Positions 857 to 38,648 of a stretch of 38,648 nucleotides of DNA are shown here, one piece after another; position 1 is the stretch's first letter, and each line of letters starts with the position of its first letter. Source of the DNA: a virus. The stretch spans positions 1-38,648 of IMG/VR virus record IMGVR_UViG_3300026311_000005; one strand, given 5' to 3'. A program made the position numbers and the translations under genes. Under the pieces are notes generated by a model. That model saw only the letters and a list, made by a program, of their open reading frames with translations. It did not search any database and was not told the origin of the DNA.

Positions 857-2038
857 TCACGGTCTATATCTGTCGCGCCATTCGATGACATACTCGTCCG
901 TCCCCGCAATGCTCAGTTCCGCCGACTCTCCGGCCGGGACTATCGGGATCTCGGATATGGCGATGTGTCTCCACTGCTCGATTTTCAGGCTCGGTATGGA
1001 GATAGATGTCAGATCGCCGTCGGCGGCAATTCGGATATATGCGTTTTCCATTCCCTCGGCTTGAGGGACATAGATCATCATCTCCCTGCCAGTCGTCCAC
1101 CGCGGGCTCTGCGAATCGATCACGGTCTGCCACGAGGCTTCACCGTCGGTCGAAACGTCGATCGATGCTATGCCCTCCCCTGTCAGAGTGGGCCGGATGG
1201 TCAGCAGCAGACCGCCCTTGCGGATCGGGAAAACTCCGGGGAGATCATATATTGCATATCCGGACGTTGTGATCACAAGTTCCCCGTCGGATACTGATGC
1301 ATTCGATGACGATGACTTGTCGGCCGCGAACTTATCCCCGTCATCGAACATATCCTCATACAGTTGATATAGCTGACCGAATCTGTCCATTGTCAGCTCC
1401 TCATCGGACATGAGCGATGGAGCGACGAGGACGGACGCATCACCGATCGTGATTGTGACATCGGCCCCACCGACGACCGATAGCGAAAACAGGAACGCGT
1501 CCAGCGTCCCGTCATTCTGAATGTACGTAGGCGATGGGAATGGGAATAACATCTCCTCACCATACTCTGCCAGGAGGGCTTGGCCTGCCTCTGACAGCAG
1601 CGGAGCATACCCGAACGTCGGGGCCGCGGCATAGAGCTCCGCAGCCTCGGCCCAGAACTTAGCGGTCTTCCGGACGATCCCCGCCCCCCCGGCCGCTGGC
1701 TCGATCTCGGTATCTCCCACCGAGCCGTGGACGACCGCGAACCGATCAGCCCGGCCGAAATAGAGGCGGTCCGTCTCCTGATCCCCGGCGAGGTCATCGA
1801 TGAGAGCGGTGATCTCGTCCTCATCGCCTATCTGGTCGGCGAGGTCCGGCCGGAATATGAGGCCCGCCACCAGGGTGAGGGGATCGCGGCCCTCCTGCCA
1901 GACGACGGCCCGGTTGCCCCCGATGATGGGTGAGGTCTTCGCCCTGCGGCCCGCGCCTTTGGCCCGCCGGGGCCCCCACTCAACATAGGAGGAGATGTCG
2001 GTATCTCCGATCTGGATTTTTCGCGATATTGAAGTCAT
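857..2038 (-). CDS. Tail-associated protein (393 aa), function unknown
   Basis: ORF track; 4-nt overlap with the upstream tail gene; its stop is followed 9 nt later by the tail fibre ATG, with a GAGG motif spanning the stop. Confidence 0.4.
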   Translation of the reverse strand: MTSISRKIQIGDTDISSYVEWGPRRAKGAGRRAKTSPIIGGNRAVVWQEGRDPLTLVAGLIFRPDLADQIGDEDEITALIDDLAGDQETDRLYFGRADRFAVVHGSVGDTEIEPAAGGAGIVRKTAKFWAEAAELYAAAPTFGYAPLLSEAGQALLAEYGEEMLFPFPSPTYIQNDGTLDAFLFSLSVVGGADVTITIGDASVLVAPSLMSDEELTMDRFGQLYQLYEDMFDDGDKFAADKSSSSNASVSDGELVITTSGYAIYDLPGVFPIRKGGLLLTIRPTLTGEGIASIDVSTDGEASWQTVIDSQSPRWTTGREMMIYVPQAEGMENAYIRIAADGDLTSISIPSLKIEQWRHIAISEIPIVPAGESAELSIAGTDEYVIEWRDRYRP

Positions 2039-4611
2039 GGTTTCGTGATCCCTCTGACTGTGCCAGTTATATCCGAATTTTGCGATATCGCATATCTTCG
2101 AATCATCAACACCGATATCGTTTCGAGATTACCATCCAATCTGCAAAATTGTGATATATCTAAATCGCTAATAATATTCCCATATATTGGCTTCGCTGTA
2201 AGATACGCGCATCGCGCTCCGTTAACGGTGACGATGCAGTCCACCGCCGCATCTGGATTTTCTTGTGAAGTCGTCCCGGACGAAGATAACGAAAACAATA
2301 CCAACCCGGCATCGGTCCCAAAATCATCGGGCGTGAAATTCATCTCAAATTCATATCCTGAAATATATATATGACCACTCGCTGTTCCGATAGTGTTGTG
2401 TCCTGACAACATCAATCCATCTTCCCATGACGTGATGCACGATACCGACGTGGTGATTAATCCGCTGACATCCTCCCAATCTTTCCCCCAATTAGTCGAT
2501 CGGTATAATTCTCCGGCACTAGACGATGCGACCACAAATCCATTGCGGAACGCGTGAAGCTTTTGGATTGTCGTGGATGGGCTGTCATAGACTTCCGTCC
2601 AAGTTGTCCCGTAATCTGTCGATCTAAAAATCTTTCCACCGCGACTAGATCCTGCTAGTATTATACCAGACGTCCACCCTGCCAACGAATATATGAACAA
2701 TTCGGATGAATCGTAGACTTCCGTCCACGTCGCTCCATAATCTGTCGACCTGAAAATCTTTCCACTTGGGTACGTCCCTGCAAATCCGTGCCCCGTGGGG
2801 ATTGCACATGTCCCGAATATATATTGCTCGCTAGTATTATACACTTCGGCCCAAGTTTCTCCGTAATCCGTTGACCGCAAAATACGGCCATTTGCTGATG
2901 TCCCGGCAATTGCGTATCCATTTTCCCATGTAGACATTGCCCATATCTGCGATCCAGATGAATCGTAGACTTCCGTCCACGTCGCTCCATAATCTGTAGA
3001 CCTGAAAATCTTTCCGTTTGGGGAGCTTCCCGCAATTGCGTATCCATTTTCCCATGTAGCTATTGAAGTAATATTATGTTCAGGTGTTACATTTTTAGCT
3101 ACTGCCCAGGTTACCCCTCGATCCGTAGATCGAAAAATCTTCCCGCCCGCGCCTGAGCCACCGTCACCGGTCCCGGCTATTGCAATATCGTCGTTCTGAA
3201 ACACCCCAATTGATGCAATAGTTTTTTCTCCGGTACTATATATGTGTGCGAACATATTTGACTCAGAACTATATGAGGCCTCCCCCACCAACCTGTCACG
3301 ATACGCCTCTATCGCTCCGGTTTCGGATCGTTCCAAAAACGCCGTTAGCAGCGACAGATCTGGCGCTCCGACGACGGCCACCTCCCCTGCGATCGTCTCT
3401 CGAATAGATCGAATCTGAGCCGCGAATTTCTCACCGCCCTCGAGATCCAATTCGATCCAGTCTCCTACATCCATACCGCCTCGATACAGATCGATCTCTA
3501 CCGGCGCGTGTTGATGGATCGCATCGTAAAAGTCATCAGTTGCCTGGTCCAGGTGGCCCCACGGTGGAAGCCTGGCACCGGGGAGCTGGTAGGTAGTCTC
3601 AAGCCACGCCTGACCCGGACACAGCAGCTCGCCACGAGCGTACCGCACGCCCTCTATATTTTCCGCGCCGGCGCCCATCCCGACAACGCAAGAATACGGG
3701 ATATATCGAGGTGGCGAGATCTTCTGTAGACTGAAATCATCGCCGATGTGCAGCGACGCGTGGGGGGCCGACTCCGACCCCCTCGCCTTCGGAGTCGCCG
3801 AAATGTCCAGATAGACGTAATCCTCCTCTCTCCGAAAGACGACGTACTGCCCGGTCTCCCCGACGAGATCCCGGATCAAGCCCCAGATCTCGGTCTCGCC
3901 AACCTCGTACGGCGCTCCGACCTCGGAGTCGGTCGCCACGGTGCCTAGCCGGACGTGATTTTCTGCCCACCCGTCGGCGGCGATCACATCATAGATATCC
4001 CCCGTTCCGGCCCCTCGGACATAGAGGTTATCCCCCGAGATCGCATAGCGATAGGTCCCTCCTGCGATCGAGGATAGGGTGGACTCGGCGAGCTTGTGGC
4101 CGCCGTAATAGATATCGTGACCGGTGACGAGCGGTCCCCATCCCTCCAGAGTTCCCACGCCATCCGAATCCCATGACACGATCCCGGTGTCCTGACCGTC
4201 GCAGATCTTCGACCTGCTGAGCCAGAGGAGGCCCATGCAGTACTGAGTCGCCCCGGCCCCCTGTGGCGGGGCGTCGGAGGAGAAGATGTCGGATAGGGTG
4301 AGCCCGACGCCGCCGGGATAAATGATCTCTGGCGCGTATCGGCACTGGAGAAGGGCTTCGGCGGCGATGCAATCATACCGCCTCTGCCCTCCCACGGCGC
4401 TGTACTCGATAGAGACGACTGAGCCGATGAAGAGCACGTCCCCGGAATCCGAAACGGCCCGGACCCTCGCCCCCATTCGGATATGATCGATCTCCGAAGC
4501 GATGGACAGAGAATCGCCTAGATCGTTCTCCAGGGAGCGGAAGAGTTCCGGGTCGGAACCGTCGATGACGAACTCGGACGACTGTCCAGGATTCTGAAAA
4601 TATAGCATCAT
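2035..4611 (-). CDS. Large tail protein with a predicted Asp-box (BNR) beta-propeller domain, sialidase-like
   Basis: Seven repeats of the Asp-box motif S-x-D-x-G-x-T-W (RSTDYGATWTEV and variants); matching near-identical 60-bp DNA repeats around 2700-3020; N-terminal region paralogous to 4608..6803; start placed at the ATG at 4611 that overlaps the upstream stop (ORF track start 4668). Confidence 0.6.
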   Translation of the reverse strand: MMLYFQNPGQSSEFVIDGSDPELFRSLENDLGDSLSIASEIDHIRMGARVRAVSDSGDVLFIGSVVSIEYSAVGGQRRYDCIAAEALLQCRYAPEIIYPGGVGLTLSDIFSSDAPPQGAGATQYCMGLLWLSRSKICDGQDTGIVSWDSDGVGTLEGWGPLVTGHDIYYGGHKLAESTLSSIAGGTYRYAISGDNLYVRGAGTGDIYDVIAADGWAENHVRLGTVATDSEVGAPYEVGETEIWGLIRDLVGETGQYVVFRREEDYVYLDISATPKARGSESAPHASLHIGDDFSLQKISPPRYIPYSCVVGMGAGAENIEGVRYARGELLCPGQAWLETTYQLPGARLPPWGHLDQATDDFYDAIHQHAPVEIDLYRGGMDVGDWIELDLEGGEKFAAQIRSIRETIAGEVAVVGAPDLSLLTAFLERSETGAIEAYRDRLVGEASYSSESNMFAHIYSTGEKTIASIGVFQNDDIAIAGTGDGGSGAGGKIFRSTDRGVTWAVAKNVTPEHNITSIATWENGYAIAGSSPNGKIFRSTDYGATWTEVYDSSGSQIWAMSTWENGYAIAGTSANGRILRSTDYGETWAEVYNTSEQYIFGTCAIPTGHGFAGTYPSGKIFRSTDYGATWTEVYDSSELFIYSLAGWTSGIILAGSSRGGKIFRSTDYGTTWTEVYDSPSTTIQKLHAFRNGFVVASSSAGELYRSTNWGKDWEDVSGLITTSVSCITSWEDGLMLSGHNTIGTASGHIYISGYEFEMNFTPDDFGTDAGLVLFSLSSSGTTSQENPDAAVDCIVTVNGARCAYLTAKPIYGNIISDLDISQFCRLDGNLETISVLMIRRYAISQNSDITGTVRGITKP

Positions 4612-6803
4612 CGTAACTCCACCTGGAGACGTCTGCATCGTGTCACGCCGTCGCCCCTGCCACTCCAAATCTGGCAGTAGAGGTATATTCCTGCCTGGAG
4701 ATCATCAAGCTCCTGCTGAGTCCATGTTGCGCCGGAATAAGGATTAGTAATCCATTCATCCTCGAAGCGTTGATAGACACCGATAAGAGATCGTTGCGCC
4801 CCCCAATATACCGTACTGTGTGTTTTTATAAACGCTCTCGAATACCCGACATCCATACCACGTTCTAATATAGCATCATGGACAAGAACTACCTTGAAAT
4901 CGAATGATGGCTTAGCTTCGTTGCTGAGGTTCCAAAGGGCCGTGCCGGATGCTTCTGCCCCGCCAATGCGACCAGCGTCCGCCAAGATATAAATATCCCC
5001 TGTCAGCGTTGATGAGATCTTAGATCCGAGCGTTAGTGTCTTTATCGCGCTCTGCCCATATCTCCCGATGCCCCGGACGGTGATCGTGTACCCGAGCGTC
5101 TCCGAAAGGGTCCCCGTGGGGTCGGTGACGGCGATCTCCAGCGTCTCCTCGGTTCCATCGAGCGCGCACCACTCAGTGATGTCCAGCCCCTCGAAGATCG
5201 GATCTTTTCCCCAAGGCTGATGGGGGATGATCGCGATGACCTGGCCTGCTGGATAGGTGGTGTTGGTGATGGTGAGGGTCCACGTGACAGCGAGGTCAGA
5301 CTCGTCCGAGTCTCCGGGTGTCGTAGCCCTGAGATCGACCAGGATCTCGGCAGTGTCCCGGTCACTGGATGCCGTCGGAGTCCAGGATATAGAGCCCGTA
5401 GTCCCCGGACCGATGTTGTCGGTGGCCTCCTGATTCCCGAACGCCTGCCCCGCCCGCATGGCGGCGATTGCAGCCGACGCCTGTTTTTCGAGATACGCAT
5501 TTCTGGGGCTGGCATACTTTCCCCCGAGCCGGATCTGTCGGAGGGGCGACAGATCGCGGGATATCTCCGATATCTGAGCGGTGGCGATCTCCGAAGGCGA
5601 GATCTCTACATCGAGCCAGTCACCGGGCAGGAAGTAGTCGATCGCTGTTTCCAGGGAGATAAAATCCGCCTCGGAGACATCGCCCCATTCTGCATCAGCG
5701 ATATCCTCCAGTCTGCCTTTCGGGGACAGTCTCCCCTCCGAGACGTCTAACGTCTGCTCTATCCAGGGCCCTCTTTTCGAGAGATCCGCCTCTGTGTAAA
5801 TCACCCTAGACACCCCTGCCCCAGCCCCACGACAGATCAAGGCAGTCGGAGGGATATCTCTTGGCGCAGTTCGCTTGAGGCTGATATAATCGCCCGGCCC
5901 GATGGAGAACGCGCCGCCCGACGACGAGCCCCGGACCCACGGATTTATCGACCCGTCTAGGTACGTCAAATCTCCGACGTGCCGAAGTCGAAGATAGATC
6001 CCCATATCGAAAAGAAAATCGTGAATAATCTGCCAATAATTGTCATCGTCGCCGGAGACGTCCAGAGCCGCGAGGAGGTAGTCGCCTGATCTGTCCAGGT
6101 TGCCGAGCCGGAGCCCGGTATCCTTGAAGTTGTCGATGCAAACCGGCCCGAAATCACCGACACCTGCGCCATAGACATAAAGATCGTTATCTCGATAAAT
6201 CCTGTACGTTCCGCCGCTGATATCTCCGAGGGAGTCTACCTCAGTGCAGAGATGGCCGCCTACGTAGACGTCTTTCCCCGCCGTCCGAGGATGTGACCCC
6301 CAGTTGGCCCACTTCCAGACTCCAGCCGTTCGAGAGTCCGCTGTTAGCGGGAAGTAACTATGAGCCATCCAGATTAGGCCTGGCACGTACTGATCCGTTC
6401 CGGCTGATTGGCTGGGAGGATCGGACGACAGGACTTGGGCCAGCGTAAGCGCGGAATAGCCCGAGACGATGGCCGGCGCTCCCCATCGCATCAGGCCCCA
6501 CGGCACCCGGCTCTTCAAAATTTGAGGGATGGATATGCACTTGATTTTCAGGCATCCCTCAGTCTTCCCCGTGGCGGCGTTGTAGAATGTTGCCCCTTCG
6601 CGAGAGGCCGCTGCACCACGATAAATCGTGTGGCCGTTCTCGACCATCTTGAGCCACGACCGATCCCGAACGGGTGCCCGGTACGATACCTTGAACTCCA
6701 GATCCTCCCCCTTGTCGAAGTCTCGGTATTGAGTATGGCGGAGATCCATGATATCGATCTGATGATAGGTCCCAGTAGCGTCGGCGACGTAGACCTCTTG
6801 CAT
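4608..6803 (-). CDS. Large tail protein (731 aa), paralogous in its N-terminal half to 2035..4611
   Basis: ORF track; shared block GGTYR.Y.D..LYV.GAG.GD with the neighbouring gene; immediately downstream of the tape measure gene. Confidence 0.5.
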   Translation of the reverse strand: MQEVYVADATGTYHQIDIMDLRHTQYRDFDKGEDLEFKVSYRAPVRDRSWLKMVENGHTIYRGAAASREGATFYNAATGKTEGCLKIKCISIPQILKSRVPWGLMRWGAPAIVSGYSALTLAQVLSSDPPSQSAGTDQYVPGLIWMAHSYFPLTADSRTAGVWKWANWGSHPRTAGKDVYVGGHLCTEVDSLGDISGGTYRIYRDNDLYVYGAGVGDFGPVCIDNFKDTGLRLGNLDRSGDYLLAALDVSGDDDNYWQIIHDFLFDMGIYLRLRHVGDLTYLDGSINPWVRGSSSGGAFSIGPGDYISLKRTAPRDIPPTALICRGAGAGVSRVIYTEADLSKRGPWIEQTLDVSEGRLSPKGRLEDIADAEWGDVSEADFISLETAIDYFLPGDWLDVEISPSEIATAQISEISRDLSPLRQIRLGGKYASPRNAYLEKQASAAIAAMRAGQAFGNQEATDNIGPGTTGSISWTPTASSDRDTAEILVDLRATTPGDSDESDLAVTWTLTITNTTYPAGQVIAIIPHQPWGKDPIFEGLDITEWCALDGTEETLEIAVTDPTGTLSETLGYTITVRGIGRYGQSAIKTLTLGSKISSTLTGDIYILADAGRIGGAEASGTALWNLSNEAKPSFDFKVVLVHDAILERGMDVGYSRAFIKTHSTVYWGAQRSLIGVYQRFEDEWITNPYSGATWTQQELDDLQAGIYLYCQIWSGRGDGVTRCRRLQVELR

Positions 6804-17404: not shown

Positions 17405-18484
17405 CTATACAGGCTCCGCGACCGCCCGAGCGCCGGCATCCGAATTCGCACCCCAGCGAGCGTGAGCCGCAACCCGACACCGCGAGCCGCAATACGAGCC
17501 GTAACCCCAATTGCCGCCCGCACGCAGCTTTACGTCTCCGGATGTACCCTGGCGTTGTATCGACCCCCGTGAGCCTGGGAGATCGAACCAAGACCACGCA
17601 GGATCTACCGTCGGATCTGTGAGTCCATCTATCCGGAAGCTCTGGTCAGCTAACCACTGGTACACGACCCCGCAACAGTCGATACATCCGCAGTTGGAGA
17701 TCATGCTCCGGCCCGCAGTGTCGAGATGGTGGCCGGTCGTGCCTGGATCTGCGGACCCGGCGATGTTCGTCTCCTCGTTCGATCCAGCTGCGAATAGTTG
17801 GAACTCTCGATCTGTCGGCAGCCTGCATCCGACAGCGCCGAGATCGTCCACGAAATCCATCCAGTCGCGAGTATCGGATATCGTGCCGCCGTTCACGCTG
17901 GCGGTGTTGACGCCCGTGCCCGATACCAGGTATATCCCGACCCAGATGTTAGCCTCCTCGCACCAAATCATTCCCTCCGGGGCGGCGATGCCCCTTGGCC
18001 GGTGCATCAGATCCCAGATCGATCCGCTCCGGTTGTCGCCGCAGTGGATGTCTCCGATCGCGTGATTCTTGAACGGGTGGCCCACTGGCAGATTCACCAT
18101 CGTCGCCGGGGTGCAGTGGAACCCCCCGATCTTTCGGGCGGTCGCGGCCGCATAACCGCTAGGAGTCGTAGAGTTGGCTGAAATCTTGATCGTAGGTGCC
18201 CGGCCGGTCGCTGGAACGCACGAGTACAGATAGAAATTTTTGCCGGCTCGGTTCGCCGGCGTCCTGTAATCGGTCCCGACGACGGTATCCCAGGTCGCTT
18301 CCAGCGCCAGATCTAGCTCGATCTGGTCGTCGAGGATGTACCCTTTCCCGCCGACGTTGACCTCAATCCCGTCAGCGGGCGACACTAGAACGTCCCGGTC
18401 GCCTGATTTCATCGACCACTTGTCGTCGATCCGCCGGACGTAGTGACCGGGTTTCGCGGCTAGATCGGGCTGGACGTAGATCAT
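17405..18484 (-). CDS. Structural-module protein with a C-terminal formylglycine-generating-enzyme-like (FGE-sulfatase type, C-type lectin fold) domain
   Basis: Motifs CRLPTDREFQLFAAGS (compare RLPTEAEWEYAARGG) and VKLRAGGNWGYGSYCGSRCRVAAHARWG...GAR (compare RGGSW...R.A.R...GFR). Confidence 0.5.
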   Translation of the reverse strand: MIYVQPDLAAKPGHYVRRIDDKWSMKSGDRDVLVSPADGIEVNVGGKGYILDDQIELDLALEATWDTVVGTDYRTPANRAGKNFYLYSCVPATGRAPTIKISANSTTPSGYAAATARKIGGFHCTPATMVNLPVGHPFKNHAIGDIHCGDNRSGSIWDLMHRPRGIAAPEGMIWCEEANIWVGIYLVSGTGVNTASVNGGTISDTRDWMDFVDDLGAVGCRLPTDREFQLFAAGSNEETNIAGSADPGTTGHHLDTAGRSMISNCGCIDCCGVVYQWLADQSFRIDGLTDPTVDPAWSWFDLPGSRGSIQRQGTSGDVKLRAGGNWGYGSYCGSRCRVAAHARWGANSDAGARAVAEPV

Positions 18485-26813: not shown

Positions 26814-26826
26814 AACGACCGCCTCT

Positions 26827-26952
26827 TCACGCGCCCCCGTCCCTCATCGCTTCGGCGAGATCCAGCACCCTTTCAAGACAGTCGCCGATGGTATCGCTTG
26901 CATCTCCGAACTTTGCCAGCCGGGCCTTATCTTTAATCCGGACTCGGATCAT
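26827..26952 (-). CDS. Small protein, paralogue 1 (41 aa)
   Basis: Manual translation MIRVRIKDKARLAKFGDASDTIGDCLERVLDLAEAMRDGGA; last 44 nt identical to the paralogue at 27301. Confidence 0.35.
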   Translation of the reverse strand: MIRVRIKDKARLAKFGDASDTIGDCLERVLDLAEAMRDGGA

Positions 26953-27094: not shown

Positions 27095-27298
27095 TCATCG
27101 CCGCCTCTTCACGCCCCGCCCGCCCTCGCCGGGTTCACGTACGCCACTCCAGTACTTGTGGCGGTATTCCGTTTCTAGCCTCTCGACTTCGACGAACTTT
27201 GCAAGAGCCCGGCTAGCGACAGCGATATCCTCCCATTCGTCGGCCTCGGCGATAACATGGCACAGAGCCATCACGATTCGTCGGGTGGTGGGTTCCAT
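27095..27298 (-). CDS. Hypothetical acidic protein (about 67 aa)
   Basis: ORF track 27095..27304; ATG at 27298 lies 3 nt after the upstream stop. Confidence 0.3.
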   Translation of the reverse strand: MEPTTRRIVMALCHVIAEADEWEDIAVASRALAKFVEVERLETEYRHKYWSGVREPGEGGRGVKRRR

Positions 27299-27300
27299 CG

Positions 27301-27444
27301 TCACGCGCCCCCGTCCCTCATCGCTTCGGCGAGATCCAGCACCCGCGCCAAACAGTCGGCCATCGAATCGGAAGCGTTCCCGAAGTTGGCGAGCCGGGCG
27401 TGATCGGCCCTATTCACCCGAATGAGTATTTTATCATCTGACAT
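27301..27444 (-). CDS. Small protein, paralogue 2 (47 aa)
   Basis: Manual translation MSDDKILIRVNRADHARLANFGNASDSMADCLARVLDLAEAMRDGGA; TATA-like TTAATA about 25 nt upstream. Confidence 0.35.
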   Translation of the reverse strand: MSDDKILIRVNRADHARLANFGNASDSMADCLARVLDLAEAMRDGGA

Positions 27445-27535
27445 CAAGGATAGTGAGCCCTCAAAGTATTAATATCTTATCCTTCGGTTTATGTCGTAAA
27501 CTACTTATATAACGAATACAACTAAGGGATATGGC

Positions 27536-27672
27536 GTGTCGCGTCGAGTCGAGTCAGGTCCGGTCGTGGCAGTCGCGTCGAGTCAGGTCGGGTCGGGTCG
27601 GGTCGTGGCAGTCGAGTCGCGTCAGGTCATGTCGAGTCGCGTCGAGTCCAGTCGGGTCCGGTCGTGGCAGTC
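27536..27672. repeat. Pentanucleotide array 1: about 27 tandem NNGTC units in three blocks, each ending in GTGGCAGTC
   Basis: Read directly: GTGTC GCGTC GAGTC GAGTC AGGTC CGGTC GTGGCAGTC ...; 5-bp periodicity, six GAGTC units. Confidence 0.8.
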
Positions 27673-27696
27673 TAACCAAAATGGAGTTGAGAAAAA

Positions 27697-28332
27697 GTGG
27701 CAGCAAAAGCAAAAGCGCCCGCCCAGAGCGGGCCTATAACCCTGAAAAGGATCGAGTTGGAAACGGTTGTCGTCCCGATCGTGGGGACCTCTGAGCTGAT
27801 CGTTCACAAGTGGAGCGATAAAGCCAAGCGCCAGATGCTAGACAAGCAGATGAAACCGGGGACCAGATCAAAGAAGGAAGCAAAAGACCCGGTAGCCGAC
27901 TACGAGGCGTCGAAATATAAGACGCCCGAAGGCAAAGATGCGATGGTGACGACCGCCTTCAAGAAGGCGATGGTTGACGCCCTCCGCTACTTCGACGGTG
28001 TGAGTATGGTCCTGGGAAAGACCGCCTTCTTTGTAGAGGGCGAGTACGTCGAGCTGGAGGGCGAGCCCCGGATGAGAGAAGACATGGTGAGGCTGGACGG
28101 CGGTGGGTCTGCTGACATCCGATACCGGGCCGGGTATCCTGAATGGAAGACGAAGCTCACCATCACCTACGCAAAGGATATCCTCACTATGGAGTCGGTC
28201 CTGTCCCTGGTAGAAGCAGCGGGACAGACCCAGGGCGTTGGCGAATGGAGGCCGTCGTCCAAGAAGACCACCGGTCCCTTCGGTCGGTTCACGATCGACA
28301 CGTCCCGGAAAATTGAGGTGATCACTGCATGA
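27697..28332 (+). CDS. Hypothetical protein (211 aa), first gene of the repeat-flanked plus-strand cassette
   Basis: ORF track; GTG start with GGAG about 11 nt upstream; no recognisable motif. Confidence 0.5.
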   Translation: MAAKAKAPAQSGPITLKRIELETVVVPIVGTSELIVHKWSDKAKRQMLDKQMKPGTRSKKEAKDPVADYEASKYKTPEGKDAMVTTAFKKAMVDALRYFDGVSMVLGKTAFFVEGEYVELEGEPRMREDMVRLDGGGSADIRYRAGYPEWKTKLTITYAKDILTMESVLSLVEAAGQTQGVGEWRPSSKKTTGPFGRFTIDTSRKIEVITA

Positions 28333-28853
28333 CCAAAATGGTATATGCCTGGAGAGAGGGGCGGAGCGCCAGCCCCTACCTTTCCAACGTATCCCCCCAG
28401 GTGGTCGGTGAAGAGCTGGAGAAGGTCCGAGAACAGGGGGGGGGGATGATCTTTCCCCGTGCCGTCATCGATCACGCCCGACCATCCGACTCGCCCCTCC
28501 ATTCATGCTTTGAATGGAACGACACGGAAGCCGCCGAGAAGTTCCGAATCGTCCAGGCGAGGGGGGTCATCAAGTCTGTCGAGATCGTCGAGATCAAAGG
28601 CAAACCACTCCCCTCCCCCATCGTAGCCAACGTCAGCGTGACGCGCCGGGCCGTTGTGCCGGGCGATCCAAGGATCAGGTATTATGAGAGCACTCCTCTC
28701 GCCCTCCAGGACCCGGAGCTTCGGGACCAGGTACTCCAGAAGGCTCTTAGGGAGCTGGAATCCTGGCGGGAACGATACGACGCCTTTACCGAGTTCAGTC
28801 TGGTCTTCGGCTCGATAGAAGCCATCCAGAAAAAGATAAGATCTTCAGCCTGA
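28329..28853 (+). CDS. Hypothetical protein (174 aa), second gene of the cassette
   Basis: ORF track; 4-nt overlap with the upstream gene. Confidence 0.5.
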   Translation: MTKMVYAWREGRSASPYLSNVSPQVVGEELEKVREQGGGMIFPRAVIDHARPSDSPLHSCFEWNDTEAAEKFRIVQARGVIKSVEIVEIKGKPLPSPIVANVSVTRRAVVPGDPRIRYYESTPLALQDPELRDQVLQKALRELESWRERYDAFTEFSLVFGSIEAIQKKIRSSA

Positions 28854-28868: not shown

Positions 28869-29025
28869 GCGGTCGGGTCAGGTCGTGTCGGGTCCGGTCG
28901 AGTCGAGTCGTGTCAAGGCAGTCGGGTCCGGTCGGGTCGAGTCATGTCTCGTCACGTCGAGTCAAGTCAAGGCAGTCGCGTCGTGTCGTGTCATGTCACG
29001 TCGTGTCGCGTCTGGTCGTGGCAGC
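28869..29025. repeat. Pentanucleotide array 2: about 26 tandem NNGTC units in three blocks punctuated by AAGGCAGTC, AAGGCAGTC and GTGGCAGCC
   Basis: Read directly; same unit type and orientation as array 1. Confidence 0.8.
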
Positions 29026-29060
29026 CGTGGCGTGTCTTGCTGCCACTATTCTATTTTTAT
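29017..29060 (+). terminator. Putative intrinsic terminator of the plus-strand cassette
   Basis: Stem GTGGCAGC, 13-nt loop, GCTGCCAC, followed by TATTCTATTTTTAT. Confidence 0.45.
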
Positions 29061-29170: not shown

Positions 29171-30529
29171 TCATGGCGCGAAGTCCTCCAGCGTCGCCGG
29201 GGGCCTCTCCGCCGCCGCCAGTCTAGCCTCGGCGATCTCGACGTACTCAGGCTCAAGCTCGATCCCGATATATCCGAATCCCTCCTCTTTCGCGGCGACG
29301 AGGGTCGTACCCGATCCGGCGAATGGGTCCAGGACCGTCCCGCCTGGGGGGGTGACGAGCCGGACTAGGTAGCGCATCAGCTTGAGGGGCTTGACCGTGG
29401 GGTGGTGGTTTTGGCGATGGGTTTTGCCTCGGAGATATGGGTTGTCAATCGGGGTGTTTCGTCCATCGTCTGTGATCCGATCTGGCATCCCCTCCAGCCC
29501 CCGGTTCCGTTCGGCCCGGCTCGCCTTCGCTACATATACGATCGGGTCCGGGTCTATCTGGAGGAAGAAGCGGGCGGCGGTGCCTTCTCTATCATGCCAT
29601 GTATGTTGCCCCCCCTTCAACCCGAACATACCACCCGGATCAGCTGATACTTTACCGCGGCCTTCTACAGAACCGCCGCTCTTCAGATGCCCCGATTGCT
29701 CCGCTATGAGCCGTACCGCACATCCTTCGACGCAGTCCTCCCCTCGCCGAACGCACCCCGGCGCGTGGCCGAGGATGAGGTTCGCAGGCCAGCGGCCAGA
29801 AGGGTTCTGGACGAACTCCGACCGATTCGTGTCTTTATATCCGCTTGGATATGTTCTGTTTTTTTGAACATGCCGGCCAGACGAAAGGATATCTCCCGTC
29901 CCGATCCGGCACCCGTCCACATTCACCGCGCCGCAACCCCACCGGAGGACGTTCGCCGCAACCGTCTTCTCTGATAACGGTTTGCGAGCCATCACGATCG
30001 GTTCATGGGCGGGCTTAAGAGCGGTCCCCCACCCGTCCCATTGGCGGGCGGCATCGGTGGCGGGGGCGGTGATGTCGACAGTTTTGCGGCTACCATCCGC
30101 TGGCAATGCGGGACCGTTTGCATATTGACTACCTCTGCCACCTGTTGCATTATTCCCCCAAACTTCTGATTGCCCTATCACGTCCCGCTCGGCCCCAGCC
30201 GCCCGGTCGATCGCCTTCGACACGTCCAGACTTTTCGGGAATCCTGATCCATATACCCAAGAGATACAGTCCCTGATCTCGAGTCCCGCGTCCTCGATCG
30301 CGCAAGCCAGCCGATGATAGGTCCGAGTCCCTCCGAACGCCAGCAGATAGCCGCCGGGCTTCAGGACGCGCCACGCCTGCCTCCAGACCTCCTGATCGTA
30401 GGCTATCCCTGACCCATCCCATTTCTTTCCCATGAACCCCAGCTCATAAGGCGGATCACAGACGATCGCGTCGATAGAGTTCTCCTCCATTTCGGCCATC
30501 CGTTCACGGCAATCTCCCTGTAATATCAT
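29171..30529 (-). CDS. DNA methyltransferase, beta-class amino-methyltransferase (N6-adenine or N4-cytosine), orphan
   Basis: Motif IV IVCDPPYE near the N-terminus and motif I VLDPFAGSGTT near the C-terminus; Cys-rich middle region; no adjacent restriction endonuclease. Confidence 0.85.
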   Translation of the reverse strand: MILQGDCRERMAEMEENSIDAIVCDPPYELGFMGKKWDGSGIAYDQEVWRQAWRVLKPGGYLLAFGGTRTYHRLACAIEDAGLEIRDCISWVYGSGFPKSLDVSKAIDRAAGAERDVIGQSEVWGNNATGGRGSQYANGPALPADGSRKTVDITAPATDAARQWDGWGTALKPAHEPIVMARKPLSEKTVAANVLRWGCGAVNVDGCRIGTGDILSSGRHVQKNRTYPSGYKDTNRSEFVQNPSGRWPANLILGHAPGCVRRGEDCVEGCAVRLIAEQSGHLKSGGSVEGRGKVSADPGGMFGLKGGQHTWHDREGTAARFFLQIDPDPIVYVAKASRAERNRGLEGMPDRITDDGRNTPIDNPYLRGKTHRQNHHPTVKPLKLMRYLVRLVTPPGGTVLDPFAGSGTTLVAAKEEGFGYIGIELEPEYVEIAEARLAAAERPPATLEDFAP

Positions 30530-32259
30530 CCGAAGCCCTCCAGCGTCGCCGGGGCCTCGAAGCTAAACAGGCTTTCCTGTTCATGATTCTTAAGCCCGGT
30601 GTCCACATCGCCGTATATCGATTTGATATTTTTGGGATCACCCTTATAAAATACCAGAACGTTCTGGTGAGTCTTCCCAAGCTTCCGGTATCCCTGAAAC
30701 TGCTTATTCACCCGGATAGGGAGCGACCCCACCGACGTGATCAGGACGGCCTCATTATAAAGGGTCGCCCCGGCGTCCTGGAAGGCTTCGATGGTATCCC
30801 CCACGAAGTTACGATAGAAGCCCCGCCGATCCCGGATATCCCCCACGACAAAGCAGGCGAATCGATCCGGCTTCAGCATCCCCACCGACGCCGCGACGAT
30901 GCCCCGATAGGTCTTGAGGAAGCCCTCATAATCCATGGTGGATAAGTCGCGGGGGTCGTCTGAGTATCTTTCGAGGTCGAAATATGGAGGACATGAAAAG
31001 ATGAGATCGTACCGACCGGGGGCGATGGCGGCGATGTCCTGGCTATCCCCGGCGATCCATCTGGGGTGGGTTCCGCCGTGTTTAATCGTGTCATTGTATC
31101 GAAGCTTCCGCCAGCTGTCCTTTGGCATGTATGAAACGAGGTCCCCGCCGCCTGCGTCGAAATGATCGCATATCCGCCCCGCCTCCTCGTCCCCGAAAAT
31201 ACGATCGAGAGACGCTCGGAAAGCCCGATACGCTGGAATCCTTTCTCCCTGGTTGTAGCATTTCAAGAGCTTATATCGGTTACGTACTATCAAGGTGTTA
31301 TTATCATTTAGCGTAAATGGGGACGCGATGCACCCGAAGGGCTTGTCTGTGGTAAAATGGAGTCCACACAGATCCTCGTCCGTCTTAAATGGGCATCGCC
31401 CGGAAGTTTCAAGCAGGCCGCCTTTTATAGACCCGCCCCGGCCCCGGATCGTCTCCTCCTCGTCTGGGTGGATGGTTATGATGGTCCCGCTAGGCGAGGT
31501 AGATGATTGACAGCAGCTCGCGTGACAAACTGATCGGATATAATCCGGATCGCATCCATGAAACGGTGTCCTGGCCATCGCGGCCGATACCTTGATCTGG
31601 ATCTTTCCATTATCAGACGGAGGACATTTCAACCCTATAAAATCCCATTGATCCTTATTCGCGGCTATCTGCTCCGGTCGGAGATCGACGCCGGTGTACT
31701 GGAAGCCCGTCAACGCCGCCACGATGCCCCGGACGGACCCGCCCGCGAAGGGGTCGAGGACATGGCCGCCGGGGGGCGTGAACCATCGATATATCAACTC
31801 ACAGAGGACGGGATCAAATATCGACGTGCCGCTCTGTGGCTGAGCCGCAAGAATCTTGCGGCTCACTTCGTCTAATTCGTCATCGGGCCGATTGCCCGTC
31901 ACCCAAGTCAATCGATCGCCTATCGGCCTCCCCGCGCCGTCTCCTCTCTCCCGGTGGGAGTAATCGCACGCGGGACGAGGACTCCCACCGGGAGACGCGT
32001 TCTTATAGTGGCTTCTGGCTTGCTCGGAGAAGCCGAGCAAGCCATTTTTATATTTTTTCGAGCCGTCGAATCCTATCTCCCCGTTTTGGCGGCTTATCGT
32101 GGCGGCGTCGGAATAGACATGCACACCGACGCCGCCACGTCCTATCTCGCTCTTGATCCCCTTCGCCAACCAGAACCTCTTCCTCTCCTGCCAATAGCCC
32201 TGCCGGGCGTCGAGGACGGAGAACGGCGGCATCACGAATTTATCGGATAACGTTCCCAC
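30526..32259 (-). CDS. DNA methyltransferase with a long Cys-rich insertion between motif I and motif IV, orphan
   Basis: N-terminal MPPFSVLDARQGYWQERKRFW, motif I VLDPFAGGS, motif IV-like FSCPPYFD; about 270 aa between them with many Cys; likely true start is the ATG at 32232. Confidence 0.75.
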   Translation of the reverse strand: MGTLSDKFVMPPFSVLDARQGYWQERKRFWLAKGIKSEIGRGGVGVHVYSDAATISRQNGEIGFDGSKKYKNGLLGFSEQARSHYKNASPGGSPRPACDYSHRERGDGAGRPIGDRLTWVTGNRPDDELDEVSRKILAAQPQSGTSIFDPVLCELIYRWFTPPGGHVLDPFAGGSVRGIVAALTGFQYTGVDLRPEQIAANKDQWDFIGLKCPPSDNGKIQIKVSAAMARTPFHGCDPDYIRSVCHASCCQSSTSPSGTIITIHPDEEETIRGRGGSIKGGLLETSGRCPFKTDEDLCGLHFTTDKPFGCIASPFTLNDNNTLIVRNRYKLLKCYNQGERIPAYRAFRASLDRIFGDEEAGRICDHFDAGGGDLVSYMPKDSWRKLRYNDTIKHGGTHPRWIAGDSQDIAAIAPGRYDLIFSCPPYFDLERYSDDPRDLSTMDYEGFLKTYRGIVAASVGMLKPDRFACFVVGDIRDRRGFYRNFVGDTIEAFQDAGATLYNEAVLITSVGSLPIRVNKQFQGYRKLGKTHQNVLVFYKGDPKNIKSIYGDVDTGLKNHEQESLFSFEAPATLEGFG

Positions 32260-34608: not shown

Positions 34609-35463
34609 CTATTTTTGGATCGCCGCAAGGATCTTGGCCGCCTTCACTTTTCCGATTTTCGGGACTGTGAGGAGCTTTTCCATCAGGTACTCGTCGGGCA
34701 CCGCTCCGGGCGGATGCTCGCACCAAAGGGCGGGCTCAATCCCTGCATCGATCATGTTCCGGGCCAGCGTCGGCCCCACTCCCGGCAAACACATTAGCAT
34801 GGCTTCTTGAGTTGATTCGCATTTCGGCATGGGGAGATGGATATCACCCTCCAAGTAGGCCCGCGACTCCCTGACAATTTGAGAAATATTCCGCCGCATC
34901 GCCCACTCCTCCGGGACCTCCAGCGTCATCGGAGGCATATCGAGAGGCGATTCGCCGAAAGCCACATCGACACCCGACGCCTTCAGAGCGGCGATACCTC
35001 GCCGGATCATGGCCTCGGCCTGCGCCCGCTCCCTGGGATTCCTCCATCCCGCCCCCGTCACTGCGGGCAACGTCCTCAGGACGTCCCCCAGAGACCCCAG
35101 GACGGCGACTTGGAGCGGGTAGGGACATTGCCTGCGCTGGGAGGATATATGGCCGTTCTGGAGGCTCTGAGCGAAGTCTGCGGGCATCTTCAGCTCGACG
35201 GCCCGATACTTCCTGATATATCGAGCTTCGGCGTCTTCCATTCGCCTCACGTCGGGGCCACTAGTCCATTCAGCCGAAAAGATCAGATCCACCTCCGCAT
35301 CACCGAAGGAAAAATCGTACTCGTCCGGGTGCCGGGCGATATACTCGGCGAGGGCGAGGTGGCGATCGGTCCCGCGCTCGCCGGGGGCCATGAGAATGGA
35401 GATCATTCTTCGTGCCTCCGAAAGTCGATCAGCGTCGCGGAGTAGGTCGATGGCGGACTTCAT
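34609..35463 (-). CDS. Putative DNA-binding or DNA-processing protein with tandem C-terminal helix-hairpin-helix motifs (284 aa)
   Basis: C-terminal LPGVGPTLARNMI and LTVPKIGKVKAAKILAAI segments; start at the ATG at 35463 overlapping the upstream stop. Confidence 0.45.
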   Translation of the reverse strand: MKSAIDLLRDADRLSEARRMISILMAPGERGTDRHLALAEYIARHPDEYDFSFGDAEVDLIFSAEWTSGPDVRRMEDAEARYIRKYRAVELKMPADFAQSLQNGHISSQRRQCPYPLQVAVLGSLGDVLRTLPAVTGAGWRNPRERAQAEAMIRRGIAALKASGVDVAFGESPLDMPPMTLEVPEEWAMRRNISQIVRESRAYLEGDIHLPMPKCESTQEAMLMCLPGVGPTLARNMIDAGIEPALWCEHPPGAVPDEYLMEKLLTVPKIGKVKAAKILAAIQK

Positions 35464-35798
35464 CGCCCCGCCTCCCGCTCGGCCTCCAGCGCCGCGATGT
35501 ATGCCGCCAGGATCGCCTCGGCGGCGGTCTCGCCGTATCCATCTTGCGAAATCGAGCCGGTTCCATCCCAAAAAATGGTGGCCTCATATTTCACATCGAA
35601 ATATGAGGTACATCTGACCTCAAAAAACAGAAATCGGTCGTCTGCCGCGATCGCGTCCTGGATGACGCCCTGGATGATGTAATGTCCTAGCGGCGATCTC
35701 GGGTATACGACCAAACCTAACACCTTGTCTACACGGCTCCACGTCTCCGGGTCCAGCTCTTTCAGCTTCGCGAGAAGCTCACTCATCGATTCTGTCAT
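35460..35798 (-). CDS. Hypothetical protein (112 aa)
   Basis: ORF track; first gene of a divergently transcribed pair. Confidence 0.4.
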   Translation of the reverse strand: MTESMSELLAKLKELDPETWSRVDKVLGLVVYPRSPLGHYIIQGVIQDAIAADDRFLFFEVRCTSYFDVKYEATIFWDGTGSISQDGYGETAAEAILAAYIAALEAEREAGR

Positions 35799-35805
35799 GA
35801 TCTCC

Positions 35806-35888
35806 CTATTATGGATCGATAGATATATATACCTTCCCCCTAATTAGGATATATGAACCCTGAAGATACCTTCAGTGCGGAGGTCTAC
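35806..35888. promoter_or_regulatory. Divergent promoter region with TATA-like boxes and a 16-bp palindrome
   Basis: ATATATAT at 35823-35830, GGATATATGA at 35848-35857, CTGAAGATACCTTCAG at 35860-35875, GGAGGT 5 nt before the plus-strand ATG. Confidence 0.4.
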
Positions 35889-35987
35889 ATGGGCCGGGTT
35901 ACGATCCCCGCCAACATCCGCAAAAGGTTTGGGATAGAGAACGGGGACGAGGCAGTTCTAGTAGTTCTAAAGAAGGTGGAGAGATGA
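35889..35987 (+). CDS. AbrB/MazE-type (swapped-hairpin) small DNA-binding protein (32 aa)
   Basis: Manual translation MGRVTIPANIRKRFGIENGDEAVLVVLKKVER; stop overlaps the next ATG (ATGA). Confidence 0.4.
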   Translation: MGRVTIPANIRKRFGIENGDEAVLVVLKKVER

Positions 35988-36838
35988 CCATAGAAGAGAC
36001 CATAAAACAATTCATCGAAGACGTAAACGCCGAGTTCGGCTCGGACCTCGCCATAGACAGCCAGGGCGGGGATGGGGAGATATCGATCAACTGGCCCGGA
36101 CACGGCCACATCTACGTAGACGCCAAAACCGGCGAGATCCTGGGGAAGACGAAGCTCCAGGGGGGACTGGTAGACAAGCTCCGGGGCGCTCTGGGGGGCA
36201 ACGTCCCCGCCGTTCCGGGGCGAGGCGGCCAGATCCGACCCGCCAGCAAAGCCGCTCAATCCCTCCGAGAAATCCAGGACGAGGAGGCCGTCGCCTTCGT
36301 CGTCGATAGAAAATCAGGGAAGAAGGCCCCCACCGCCGCCCTCATCTCCAGAGCGGCCAACGCCGAGGGCCTGAGCTTCGAAGTGCTGGACTACGACCAC
36401 CGGCGCGACTTCGTGAAGGTGGCGATCCGGGCGACGTCCCCGGAAGGCCGGTATAATGACGCCGTGGTATCGGTTTATAAAGATGAATACCTCGCTCCCT
36501 ACGCCTGGGAGCTGGTGCAAAACAACTGTCCGTCGGCGGTAGAGGCGGTTGACCCGGAGACGGGGATGCCGATATTCCGGGAGGGGGCAACTATCCGAGT
36601 CCCGAAGAGCCGGGATGGTTCCAGGCTCTATGAGGAGGTTCCGGTCATCCTGTGGCTCGCCCAGAAGCTCGCCGCCCGGTGGCTATTCGCGCCCCGGAGC
36701 TGCGAGACGAAAGCCAAAGCCAGAGCCGCTAAGCAACTTCTGAATACTGACGCTGCCCCAACGAGCTGGCAGGAGCCCGAAGAGATCGCCGACGAGGAGA
36801 TGGAGTCATCACTGGTAGAGGGCGAGGTGGTGAGCTGA
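35984..36838 (+). CDS. Hypothetical protein (284 aa), translationally coupled to the AbrB-like gene
   Basis: ORF track; no recognisable motif. Confidence 0.45.
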   Translation: MTIEETIKQFIEDVNAEFGSDLAIDSQGGDGEISINWPGHGHIYVDAKTGEILGKTKLQGGLVDKLRGALGGNVPAVPGRGGQIRPASKAAQSLREIQDEEAVAFVVDRKSGKKAPTAALISRAANAEGLSFEVLDYDHRRDFVKVAIRATSPEGRYNDAVVSVYKDEYLAPYAWELVQNNCPSAVEAVDPETGMPIFREGATIRVPKSRDGSRLYEEVPVILWLAQKLAARWLFAPRSCETKAKARAAKQLLNTDAAPTSWQEPEEIADEEMESSLVEGEVVS

Positions 36839-36913
36839 TATGTCTCTCGAAGAGATAGCCGAGGAGACGCCGCTCGTCTTCGCGGCATGGGTGGCCGAGA
36901 TGGAGGGGACGAC

Positions 36914-37321
36914 ATGATCCGCCTCCCCCTTTTGGCCGCGCTCCTCCTCGTCGTCGGTGGAACGGCGGAGTGGTCCCTCGCCACCGGCATCGCCCCTGAA
37001 CCGTTCACGAGCGATCGGCTCGCCGTCGACGTGGCCCGGCTCGCCGGGGGCAACCTGACTCTCGAAGAGTGGGTCGTCGTCCTCGCCCTAGGGCATGGCT
37101 ACAACGTCACCATGGACGGAATAGTGACGTTGGACGACGGGGAGCGGATCGATATCTCCGCCCTATACATCGTGGTATCCGGTCCCATCGAAATATCCCT
37201 GGAGCACGCCCCCCACAAAAATGATGAATCACCACCATATAGCCGAGCCGCGCGTTGGTACTTTGGGCTCGTACTCGATCACGAGTCGAATCTTGGCACA
37301 CCCGCAATAATTGTACAATGA
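36914..37321 (+). CDS. Hypothetical secreted protein (about 135 aa); 3' end overlaps the convergent gene 37229..37720
   Basis: Signal-like N-terminus MIRLPLLAALLLVVGGTA; high third-position GC in the first two thirds only. Confidence 0.3.
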   Translation: MIRLPLLAALLLVVGGTAEWSLATGIAPEPFTSDRLAVDVARLAGGNLTLEEWVVVLALGHGYNVTMDGIVTLDDGERIDISALYIVVSGPIEISLEHAPHKNDESPPYSRAARWYFGLVLDHESNLGTPAIIVQ

Positions 37322-37721: not shown

Positions 37722-38648
37722 CTACATCACCCTCGTCGGTACCCTGACCTCGAACGACTCCACGAGGAAGTCGCTAGTGAGATTATTCGAGCTGGGCGCT
37801 ATCCTCGATATCGCCAGCCTCACCCTTTGACCGGCAGACCAACCAAGGGAGCTGACGGTCGCCGTCCAGGTGTAGATGACGGGCCGGTTCTGGGTGGCGT
37901 TGCAGGCTAGGTCGCCTGAGTCGCTGGCGGTCGAGTAAGCAGTATCGACAGACCCTGCGCCGCTCGACAGGACCAACTGCTTCACCCTGAACTTAACGTT
38001 CTTGCCGGCGGCCGCCGTCTTGGCCCACCCCACGAGGGCGAACGTTATGGTTCCCCCAGTGTTGATGTCGGCCGGCACCACGAAGGCCGGCGCCTGGGCC
38101 GTCTCCTCGGTAGTGTCATCGAATGCAAGCGTAACCACCGCCTGGTTCGTCCCATCCAATAGGTATTCCTCGGGCGAGTTGGCGGCGTCAAGGTTGAATG
38201 CGGTGGGCGGCAGCACGAGGATCCTCGTGCTGTAGAGATACGTCCAGGCCGGATCGTCTGCACCCATCGACAGAACGGAGTACTGGGAGCCTTTGGCGAG
38301 CCTGGCGGCGTCACCGGATCCCCGGTATAGCAGGTCTCCCCGGGTCGTGAGGATCTGGTTCAGAAGGGTCGCCAGGGTGGCCCAGGCCGGATCGTCTGCA
38401 CCCATCGACAGAACGGAGTACTGGGAGCCTTTGGCGAGCCTGGCAGAAGTTCCGTCCGAGCGGTATAAGAGATCTCCCCTTGTGGTCAGGATCGTATCTA
38501 GTATCGCCGCCGGAGTCGAAACCCCTCCGAACAGAGGCCGGTCGTCCCGGTAAATGTAGCTGTTGGAGCCGTCGTCGGCGTCATCGATATGAACCGATCC
38601 CACCCGATGATAGACCAGGCAGATCGGGACGGTATTCGCGACGAGAGC
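37722..38648 (-). CDS. Tail fibre protein, C-terminal portion (38522-38648 duplicates 1-127); contains a tandem 46-aa repeat
   Basis: ORF track 37722..38603 with no stop upstream to the window end; internal repeat ILTTRGDLLYR...ARLAKGSQYSVLSMGADDPAW occurs twice; last large gene of the tail cluster. Confidence 0.6.
   Translation of the reverse strand, partial: ALVANTVPICLVYHRVGSVHIDDADDGSNSYIYRDDRPLFGGVSTPAAILDTILTTRGDLLYRSDGTSARLAKGSQYSVLSMGADDPAWATLATLLNQILTTRGDLLYRGSGDAARLAKGSQYSVLSMGADDPAWTYLYSTRILVLPPTAFNLDAANSPEEYLLDGTNQAVVTLAFDDTTEETAQAPAFVVPADINTGGTITFALVGWAKTAAAGKNVKFRVKQLVLSSGAGSVDTAYSTASDSGDLACNATQNRPVIYTWTATVSSLGWSAGQRVRLAISRIAPSSNNLTSDFLVESFEVRVPTRVM
38522..38648. repeat. Terminal direct repeat, copy 2 (identical to 1-127)
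   Basis: Same comparison as above. Confidence 0.9.

Follow-up and report, generated by a model that had tools for sequence, protein, structure and literature searches.

A predicted AbrB-type regulator at a divergent viral promoter, coupled to a candidate new-family annealing recombinase in the place of RecT

Introduction

Is a very small AbrB-type gene that runs into a larger gene of no named family one half of a toxin-antitoxin pair, or the regulator of something else? The question is raised by the viral DNA of IMG/VR record IMGVR_UViG_3300026311_000005 (positions 1 to 38,648, the whole stretch analyzed here, which we call the window). An earlier note on its sequence had taken a 32-amino-acid (aa) protein encoded from position 35889 for an antitoxin or autoregulator paired with an unknown effector, the 284-aa product of the next open reading frame (ORF), and had suggested that the pairing might be new. 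We propose instead, with a probability of roughly 0.7, that an AbrB-type regulator acts at a divergent viral promoter and is coupled to an annealing recombinase of a new family, which has replaced RecT in frame and is partnered with an XPF-type nuclease. Below, "L" numbers denote related loci or contigs and "P" numbers denote related proteins.

The window carries an exact 127-bp direct repeat at its two ends (1 to 127 and 38522 to 38648), and because of this terminal repeat we regard it as a complete genome of 38,521 bp, circular or terminally redundant. It codes for terminase, major capsid protein, tape-measure protein, Mtd-like and tail-fibre-like proteins and two DNA methyltransferases and is a complete tailed-virus genome of ~38.5 kb; it contains no tRNA genes and no Rfam families. 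Its closest GenBank relative, found by short matches, is Caudoviricetes sp. vir515, a virus assigned to Methanosarcinales, and comparison with related contigs shows strong mosaicism. Literature searches returned no paper on the family of the 284-aa protein or on recombination genes of these viruses.

Results

The 284-aa gene fills the slot of RecT, with the core alone exchanged

The 284-aa protein (ORF 35984 to 36838, plus strand) has no above-threshold match in Pfam, PHROGs, NCBIfam, PADLOC or the PDB sequences, which agrees with the earlier view that it lacks a named family; the one sub-threshold Pfam match is PepSY (E 0.032), and an index of 5.8 billion proteins holds only four full-length close homologues. 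Its first ~70 residues tell more, being 64 to 75% identical at the amino acid level to genuine RecT proteins (PF03837; P0006 to P0012) and to a short fragment (P0013). The only match among GenBank phages, the "RecT-like ssDNA annealing protein" of vir515, is likewise confined to the N-terminus. This N-terminal domain (aa 1 to 75; 35984 to 36208, plus strand) is predicted to have the element order alpha-beta-beta-beta-alpha, with a predicted local distance difference test score (pLDDT) of 73 to 85, and is common to the RecT-type recombinases of related viruses.

At the DNA level, similarity to the RecT genes runs from the ribosome-binding site to codon ~67 at ~80% identity, is then lost, and returns in the final 24 nt (TAGAGGGCGAGGTGGTGAGCTGAT; VEGEVVS plus the stop codon), which are identical in the window, in L005 and in the RecT locus L008. 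Because the similarity stops at codon ~67 and resumes in these last 24 nt, we conclude that the core alone has been exchanged, in frame and at the same locus. The 284-aa gene thus occupies the slot that RecT has in related viruses, with the same N-terminal domain and tail. No RecT core is found elsewhere in the complete genome, which leaves the 284-aa protein as its sole candidate annealase. We hypothesize that the RecT core and the new core are analogous annealases that have been swapped in frame between a shared N-terminal domain and a shared tail. If so, the replacement of a RecT core by a Rad52-like core between conserved flanks provides a clean natural case of analogous domain displacement.

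In seven further contigs (L023, L024, L025, L032, L033, L035 and L037), the AbrB gene precedes an ORF that has the recombinase N-terminal domain but ends after 49 to 170 aa or runs into unrelated sequence (P0005, of 167 aa, is an example). These relatives look like deletion or chimeric derivatives without an annealase core.

The exchanged core has a predicted Rad52-superfamily-like fold

Among 1.84 billion cluster representatives, a profile search recovered 38 clusters with the new core. None of the 41 members of the core family has a match to an annealase family in Pfam or to a PHROG family, and a search of the PDB sequences with the 284-aa protein and its family gave no match even at E values up to 10. 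When the core family was compared by hhalign with the co-resident RecT family, only the N-terminal domain aligned; because of this, a description of the core as a "divergent RecT" is unsupported at the sequence level.

The earlier note had proposed a structure prediction of the 284-aa protein as a check. The AlphaFold2 model, which we built with a 41-sequence alignment, is confident (pLDDT of 85.8 overall and above 95 for aa 130 to 250) and has a core resembling the Rad52 superfamily (aa 95 to 254; 36266 to 36745, plus strand), in which R238, T242 and K243 are nearly invariant. The predicted elements follow each other in the order beta-hairpin, helix, three-stranded sheet, long helix, two hairpins, two helices and acidic C-terminal helix. 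The Rad52-superfamily fold is described as a three-stranded beta-sheet traversed by an alpha-helix, with a beta-hairpin and further helices (PMC11783212), and the predicted core contains all of these elements. The best structural matches are yeast Rad52 (score of 6.1), Sak of phage 80-alpha (6.0 and 5.8), lambda Red-beta (5.8) and Mgm101 (5.7), interleaved with double-stranded RNA-binding domains (dsRBDs) and uS5 domains, which share the alpha-beta-beta-beta-alpha unit. A Foldseek search of BFVD gave named matches that are mostly ERF, RecT, Sak3, Rad52 and Bet, at E values of 2e-5 to 3e-2 and with low whole-chain TM-scores. The acidic C-terminal helix and tail (aa 265 to 284; 36776 to 36838, plus strand) contain three residues that are invariant in the family alignment (E267, E271 and E274), and the last seven codons and the stop are those shared with the RecT versions. 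The suggestion that the partner has no known toxin fold held up in the model, whose nearest neighbors are annealases, and there is no toxin-family match in the databases searched, including PADLOC.

Most likely, then, the 284-aa protein is annealase-like and represents a new sequence family that is separate from RecT, Rad52, Erf and Sak. The main uncertainty lies in this assignment, which draws on a predicted fold with modest scores, on the domain swap and on synteny. In our model the protein would consist of three parts, an N-terminal adaptor, a Rad52-like core that binds single-stranded DNA and pairs complementary strands, and an acidic C-terminal helix and tail that probably bind a partner. 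Like the single-strand annealing proteins (SSAPs) of the Rad52 superfamily (Rad52, Sak, Sak3, Erf, Red-beta and RecT), it has a predicted core with a sheet, a traversing helix, hairpins and helices, it is encoded in a viral early region and stands in the RecT slot of related genomes, and it has an acidic C-terminal region. Unlike the classical SSAPs, it has an extra N-terminal domain of ~75 aa and a linker of ~20 aa before the core, and no similarity in sequence or profile to any of the named SSAP families is detectable. The neighboring gene also differs, coding for an XPF-type nuclease rather than a lambda-Exo or RecE-type exonuclease.

The core family appears to be restricted to relatives of the virus with an assigned Methanosarcinales host and to genomic islands in "Ca. 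Methanoperedens." A distant subfamily (P0025 to P0050; loci L016 to L020) comes from metagenome-assembled genomes of "Ca. Methanoperedens" and Methanosarcinales. Its members have long, variable N-termini with CxxC...CxxC zinc-ribbon-like motifs, and the islands that encode them also hold IS21, GmrSD, AbiE, Cdc6/Orc and SMC-like ATPase genes. The Methanoperedens-type subfamily has no relatives in IMG/VR.

An XPF-type nuclease gene adjoins the recombinase gene

The leftward operon would encode a 112-aa protein and a structure-specific nuclease of the XPF/Hef/Mus81 type (34609 to 35406, minus strand), of ~265 aa when counted from Met 35406; a longer form from 35463 is possible. In each of the seven related loci compared, the nuclease gene adjoins the recombinase gene, regardless of the core that the latter has. 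A single-sequence PDB search with this leftward helix-hairpin-helix (HhH) protein returned nothing, and none of six family members matched Pfam ERCC4 (PF02732) even at E values up to 1, giving only HhH-type families; the XPF link appears only with the profile of six homologues, which matches Aeropyrum pernix XPF (2bhn/2bgw) with a whole-sequence E of 1.9e-5 in two collinear segments. The first is the active-site segment, VELKmpxDxxxSlxxgHxxxQ against VERKtssDFAKSLFDGRLFEQ in XPF (7.6 bits, weak on its own), and the second is a C-terminal (HhH)2 segment (18 bits). The family thus combines the GDxn-ERKxxxD active-site signature with a C-terminal (HhH)2, and its conserved residues are D40, E/D71, K73, D77, S81 and Q90. 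The ERK motif itself is changed, reading ELK in the window and having L, I or W in place of R across the family.

Eukaryotic single-strand annealing employs Rad52 together with the flap nuclease Rad1-Rad10/XPF-ERCC1. The window resembles this pathway in that the genes for a protein with a predicted Rad52-like fold and for an XPF-family nuclease with (HhH)2 lie side by side; unlike in the eukaryotic pathway, both genes are viral and divergently transcribed, and the nuclease has ELK instead of ERK. We hypothesize that the nuclease trims flaps or branched intermediates alongside the annealase, so that the two would form a viral recombination module for replication, repair and mosaic exchange. It is the conserved synteny that leads us to infer this cooperation.

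Could the 284-aa protein instead be some other nucleic acid binder, such as a dsRBD-like duplex binder, an accessory factor of replication or packaging, or an anti-defense protein, which merely shares the alpha-beta-beta-beta-alpha unit with Rad52? The AbrB-type protein would still be the regulator of its operon. The missing sequence-level link to any SSAP family speaks for such a protein, as does the occurrence of the distant subfamily in defense- and mobile-element-rich Methanoperedens islands. We nevertheless consider it unlikely, since the core is swapped in frame with a RecT core, flanked in both cases by one and the same N-terminal domain and tail and at the same locus, the genome has no other annealase, the named viral Foldseek matches are almost all annealases, and the adjacency to the XPF-type nuclease is conserved.

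Returning to an annealase, there are in our view about even odds that the 284-aa protein founds an unrecognized annealase family, either one more branch of the Rad52 superfamily or one that arose independently from the same beta-beta-beta-alpha unit, and that this family forms a cassette with a RecT-swappable core and would work with a viral XPF-type flap nuclease.

The micro-gene encodes a stand-alone AbrB-type domain

The 32-aa ORF is present (35889 to 35987; MGRVTIPANIRKRFGIENGDEAVLVVLKKVER) and its product matches PF04014 (AbrB/MazE) with 25.2 bits against a cutoff of 24.7. However, the true start of the gene is almost certainly the ATG at 35853, in the same frame and with the same stop, which corrects the product to 44 aa (35853 to 35987, plus strand) and makes the 32-aa form the result of an internal ATG. 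We place the start there because the 12 additional N-terminal residues are kept in homologues, the ATG at 35889 is not, and the profile alignment begins at residue 1. The homologues share the extra N-terminal strand (MNPEDTFSAEV in the window, MPEEHSFMVEV in L005 and MAEENIFTGAV in L006), and L005 has no ATG at the position of 35889 and retains the equivalent of 35853. The 44-aa form is also called on 36 contigs, under the Joint Genome Institute name "AbrB family looped-hinge helix DNA binding protein."

The swapped-hairpin fold of the AbrB/MazE type, which had been proposed for the shorter form, is supported by the longer one. The 44-aa protein scores 29.3 bits against NCBIfam TIGR01439 (AbrB family; cutoff of 28.3) and a borderline 24.0 bits against PF04014, which matches four of five homologues with a best E of 3.8e-7. 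The family profile matches the solved structures 2glw (4.3e-11) and Sso7c4 (5itm, 1.9e-6; 5itm/5itj/2l66, 2e-6 to 8e-6) and, more weakly, SpoVT (7e-4) and AbrB (0.3), with residues 1 to 37 of the profile aligned to residues 1 to 36 of the 48-aa Sso7c4. At least six divergent alleles keep an open frame of 44 to 52 aa with the AbrB signature R-[VIM]-x-IP...GD, and an AbrB-like micro-gene lies upstream in 23 of the 26 loci that bear a gene with the N-terminal domain of the 284-aa protein. Judged by these profiles, the micro-protein is a member of the AbrB/SpoVT/MazE swapped-hairpin family that consists of the DNA-binding domain alone.

There is precedent for a stand-alone viral AbrB regulator in C68 of the Sulfolobus plasmid-virus pSSVx, which is AbrB-like and lacks a C-terminal domain. 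C68 and Sso7c4 are, like the micro-protein, very small and made up of the swapped-hairpin DNA-binding domain only. The micro-protein is shorter, with 44 aa, than either C68 (7.7 kDa) or Sso7c4 (48 to 54 aa), and it is encoded by a tailed virus, a relative of one with an assigned Methanosarcinales host, whereas C68 and Sso7c4 are crenarchaeal. Unlike their genes, its gene is probably translationally coupled to a candidate recombinase gene, and its DNA binding is predicted. We hypothesize that the protein forms a swapped-hairpin dimer, which would bind to the promoter DNA next to its gene and (auto)regulate either operon or both.

A putative compact divergent promoter varies with the AbrB allele

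The intergenic region between the divergent start codons (ATG at 35798 on the minus strand and at 35853 on the plus strand) measures 54 bp by the ORF positions (35799 to 35852) and has a TATA-like box, GATATATATACC, in its middle at 35822 to 35833. A spacing of 52 to 54 bp with a central TATA-like element recurs in five homologous loci. We infer that the region is a compact bidirectional archaeal promoter that gives leaderless or near-leaderless transcripts.

A palindromic operator upstream of the micro-gene, as had been claimed, does not stand out in the window. The palindrome CCTAATTAGG (35839 to 35848), read between the TATA-like box and the ATG at 35853, has 5-bp arms, a length that 64% of the shuffled intergenic sequences reach, and CTGAAG-ATAC-CTTCAG (35860 to 35875), with 6-bp arms, is equaled in 37% of shuffles, falls within the 44-aa coding region and is not kept in L005. 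A candidate operator is the imperfect palindrome TCCCTAtTATGGA (35803 to 35815) beside the leftward start codon, which is itself not significant in the window. In L012 and L014, which have the same AbrB allele as the window, the intergenic region differs by a single base, making TCCCTAtTAGGGA a perfect palindrome. In L005, the palindrome at the TCCCTAtTATGGA site reaches 9-bp arms (equaled in 3 of 2,000 shuffles), and in L008 an inverted repeat with 9-bp arms flanks the TATA box (equaled in 10 of 2,000).

Comparison with L005 shows where the locus varies. The flanks are 91 to 99% identical at the DNA level, the right-hand three quarters of the intergenic region have diverged, and so has the micro-gene except for its last ~6 codons; the micro-proteins share 49% of their residues and the 284-aa partners 96%. 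Across loci, the same AbrB allele goes with the same intergenic sequence. This pattern of sequence divergence fits a putative regulator-plus-operator cassette and not a co-evolving protein pair, and a divergent promoter of 52 to 54 bp with allele-specific AbrB regulators would provide a compact model of archaeal viral gene control.

The overlapping pair is unlikely to be a toxin-antitoxin module

As stated before, the stop codon of the micro-gene (TGA, 35985 to 35987) overlaps the start of the 284-aa ORF (ATG, 35984 to 35986). The junction GAAGGTGGAGAGATGA (35972 to 35987, plus strand) consists of a Shine-Dalgarno-like AGGTGG followed by the ATGA stop/start overlap, and because this overlap is preceded by AGGTGG the two genes are probably translationally coupled. 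Its 16 nt are identical in the window, L005 and L008 despite the divergence of the rest of the micro-gene; in L030 and L031, a gap of 17 nt separates the micro-gene from the next gene, and there is no overlap. The rightward operon would thus open, probably leaderless, with the 44-aa AbrB-type gene and continue with the coupled 284-aa gene.

Such a layout is reminiscent of MazE/MazF, with a small first gene that ends in an overlap with the next gene and whose product is of the AbrB/MazE fold and probably autoregulates from the promoter. Could the AbrB-type protein then be an antitoxin that neutralizes a new 284-aa toxin and represses the operon, in a type II toxin-antitoxin system or some addiction or abortive module of that sort? 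In its favor, the small protein has a match to AbrB/MazE in Pfam and a weak one to a PHROGs "antitoxin" label (E 0.0012), its gene comes first and overlaps by 4 nt a larger gene of no named family, and some metagenomic relatives keep the AbrB gene with a truncated downstream gene. MazE neutralizes MazF via a disordered tail, residues 50 to 82 (PMC4333400). The 44-aa protein, however, is a DNA-binding domain without a toxin-binding C-terminal extension, and its partner is neither MazF, PIN nor any other toxin fold, being annealase-like in its predicted structure and without a toxin match in PADLOC, Pfam, NCBIfam or PHROGs. The pairing is not conserved either: micro-genes precede new-core genes and also RecT, a known non-toxin (L006, L008, L030 and L031), and in L001 and L009 the micro-gene is absent, with a 140- to 146-aa gene in its place and the downstream recombinase gene kept. 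Finally, the contrast in identity between the small proteins and their partners argues against co-evolution. We therefore judge a toxin-antitoxin module to be very improbable. From the earlier pair of options, the autoregulator is favored by the bare AbrB domain and the divergent promoter, the antitoxin is disfavored by the missing toxin-binding tail and the lack of a conserved pairing, and the idea of a new antitoxin-toxin pair gives way to that of a regulator preceding an annealase.

It is more improbable still that the small ORF is untranslated, or serves merely as an upstream ORF that brings ribosomes to the 284-aa gene and resembles AbrB by chance, since its shortness, its PF04014 score just under the cutoff and the constraint that the downstream ribosome-binding site puts on its 3' end are outweighed by the alleles that keep frame and AbrB signature in 23 of 26 loci, by a family profile that matches solved AbrB-family structures and by the TIGR01439 score above the cutoff.

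Discussion

We return to the reading of the locus as an AbrB-type regulator coupled to a new-family annealase that is partnered with an XPF-type nuclease. Several points weigh against it. No operator is definable in the window itself, because the palindromes there are at chance level, and the joint divergence of the AbrB gene and the intergenic region could be explained by physical linkage alone. The annealing domain of classical SSAPs lies within their first ~180 aa, with regions for partner binding at the C-terminus (PMC11783212), and the annealase-like core lies at aa ~95 to 254 and not at the N-terminus. Neither Pfam, PHROGs, the PDB profiles nor hhalign against RecT provides a sequence or profile link between this core and annealase families. 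No exonuclease or single-stranded DNA-binding protein partner was identified in the part of the ORFs that was scanned, and no obvious recombination partner lies near the distant subfamily in the mobile-element-rich islands of "Ca. Methanoperedens." The host assignment is indirect, via the short matches to one GenBank virus, and the G+C content of the window is ~58%.

What would such a module mean? The conserved pairing with an XPF-type nuclease would make it an archaeal-virus counterpart of eukaryotic single-strand annealing by Rad52 and XPF-ERCC1, with a bearing on the evolution of the Rad52 superfamily. To our knowledge, efficient recombineering tools are lacking for methanogens and anaerobic methanotrophs, and native viral annealases that come in two exchangeable forms on a common adaptor domain would be natural candidates for such tools. 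The analysis also removes a false lead, that of a new toxin-antitoxin pair, and provides a testable function for a family labeled hypothetical in all sources and missed by Pfam, PHROGs, NCBIfam and PADLOC.

Neighboring genes and other features of the genome

The 112-aa protein (35460 to 35798, minus strand) is the first gene product of the leftward operon in the ORF listing. It has no significant match in Pfam, PHROGs, PADLOC or NCBIfam (a weak PHROG match has an E of 0.055), its gene is conserved in L002, L005, L006, L008 and L012, and L008 holds a tandem duplicate (4512 to 5160). Downstream in the rightward operon, the same listing gives a 25-aa ORF (36840 to 36917, plus strand) and a 135-aa protein with a hydrophobic N-terminus (36914 to 37321, plus strand). 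L008 keeps both genes, downstream of RecT, and L005 keeps the 135-aa gene as well.

Two arrays of ~170 to 185 bp each (27535 to 27703 and 28874 to 29057) consist of GTCNN repeats with a 5-nt period, punctuated by GTGGCAGTC and oriented alike. Between them, in a GC-poor region, lie two plus-strand ORFs without family matches (27697 to 28332 and 28329 to 28853); the arrays may represent a replication origin with iterons or a mobile cassette. Just upstream of them lies a 108-nt direct repeat with 81% identity (26824 to 26931 and 27298 to 27405, 474 nt apart).

Two adjoining genes for N6/N4 DNA methyltransferases occupy 29174 to 32259 on the minus strand. The Pfam match of the first (452 aa) covers residues 19 to 434 for a profile of 221 positions, implying a large insertion; L002 encodes a methyltransferase (903 to 3416) that also belongs to this Pfam family and has a weak intein match. 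A gene at 17408 to 18484 (minus strand) encodes the second domain of Mtd (PF21916), typical of the targets of diversity-generating retroelements, and is 95% identical to a segment of L005 (4396 to 5782) that lies near the recombinase module there.

Two further repeats lie within genes on the minus strand. An exact 63-nt repeat (38244 to 38306 and 38382 to 38444) is located in a tail-fibre-like gene (37722 to 38603), and a fourfold tandem repeat of 126 nt (2565 to 3041) in a BNR/sortilin-like gene (2038 to 4668); both probably encode protein repeat units of host-recognition proteins.

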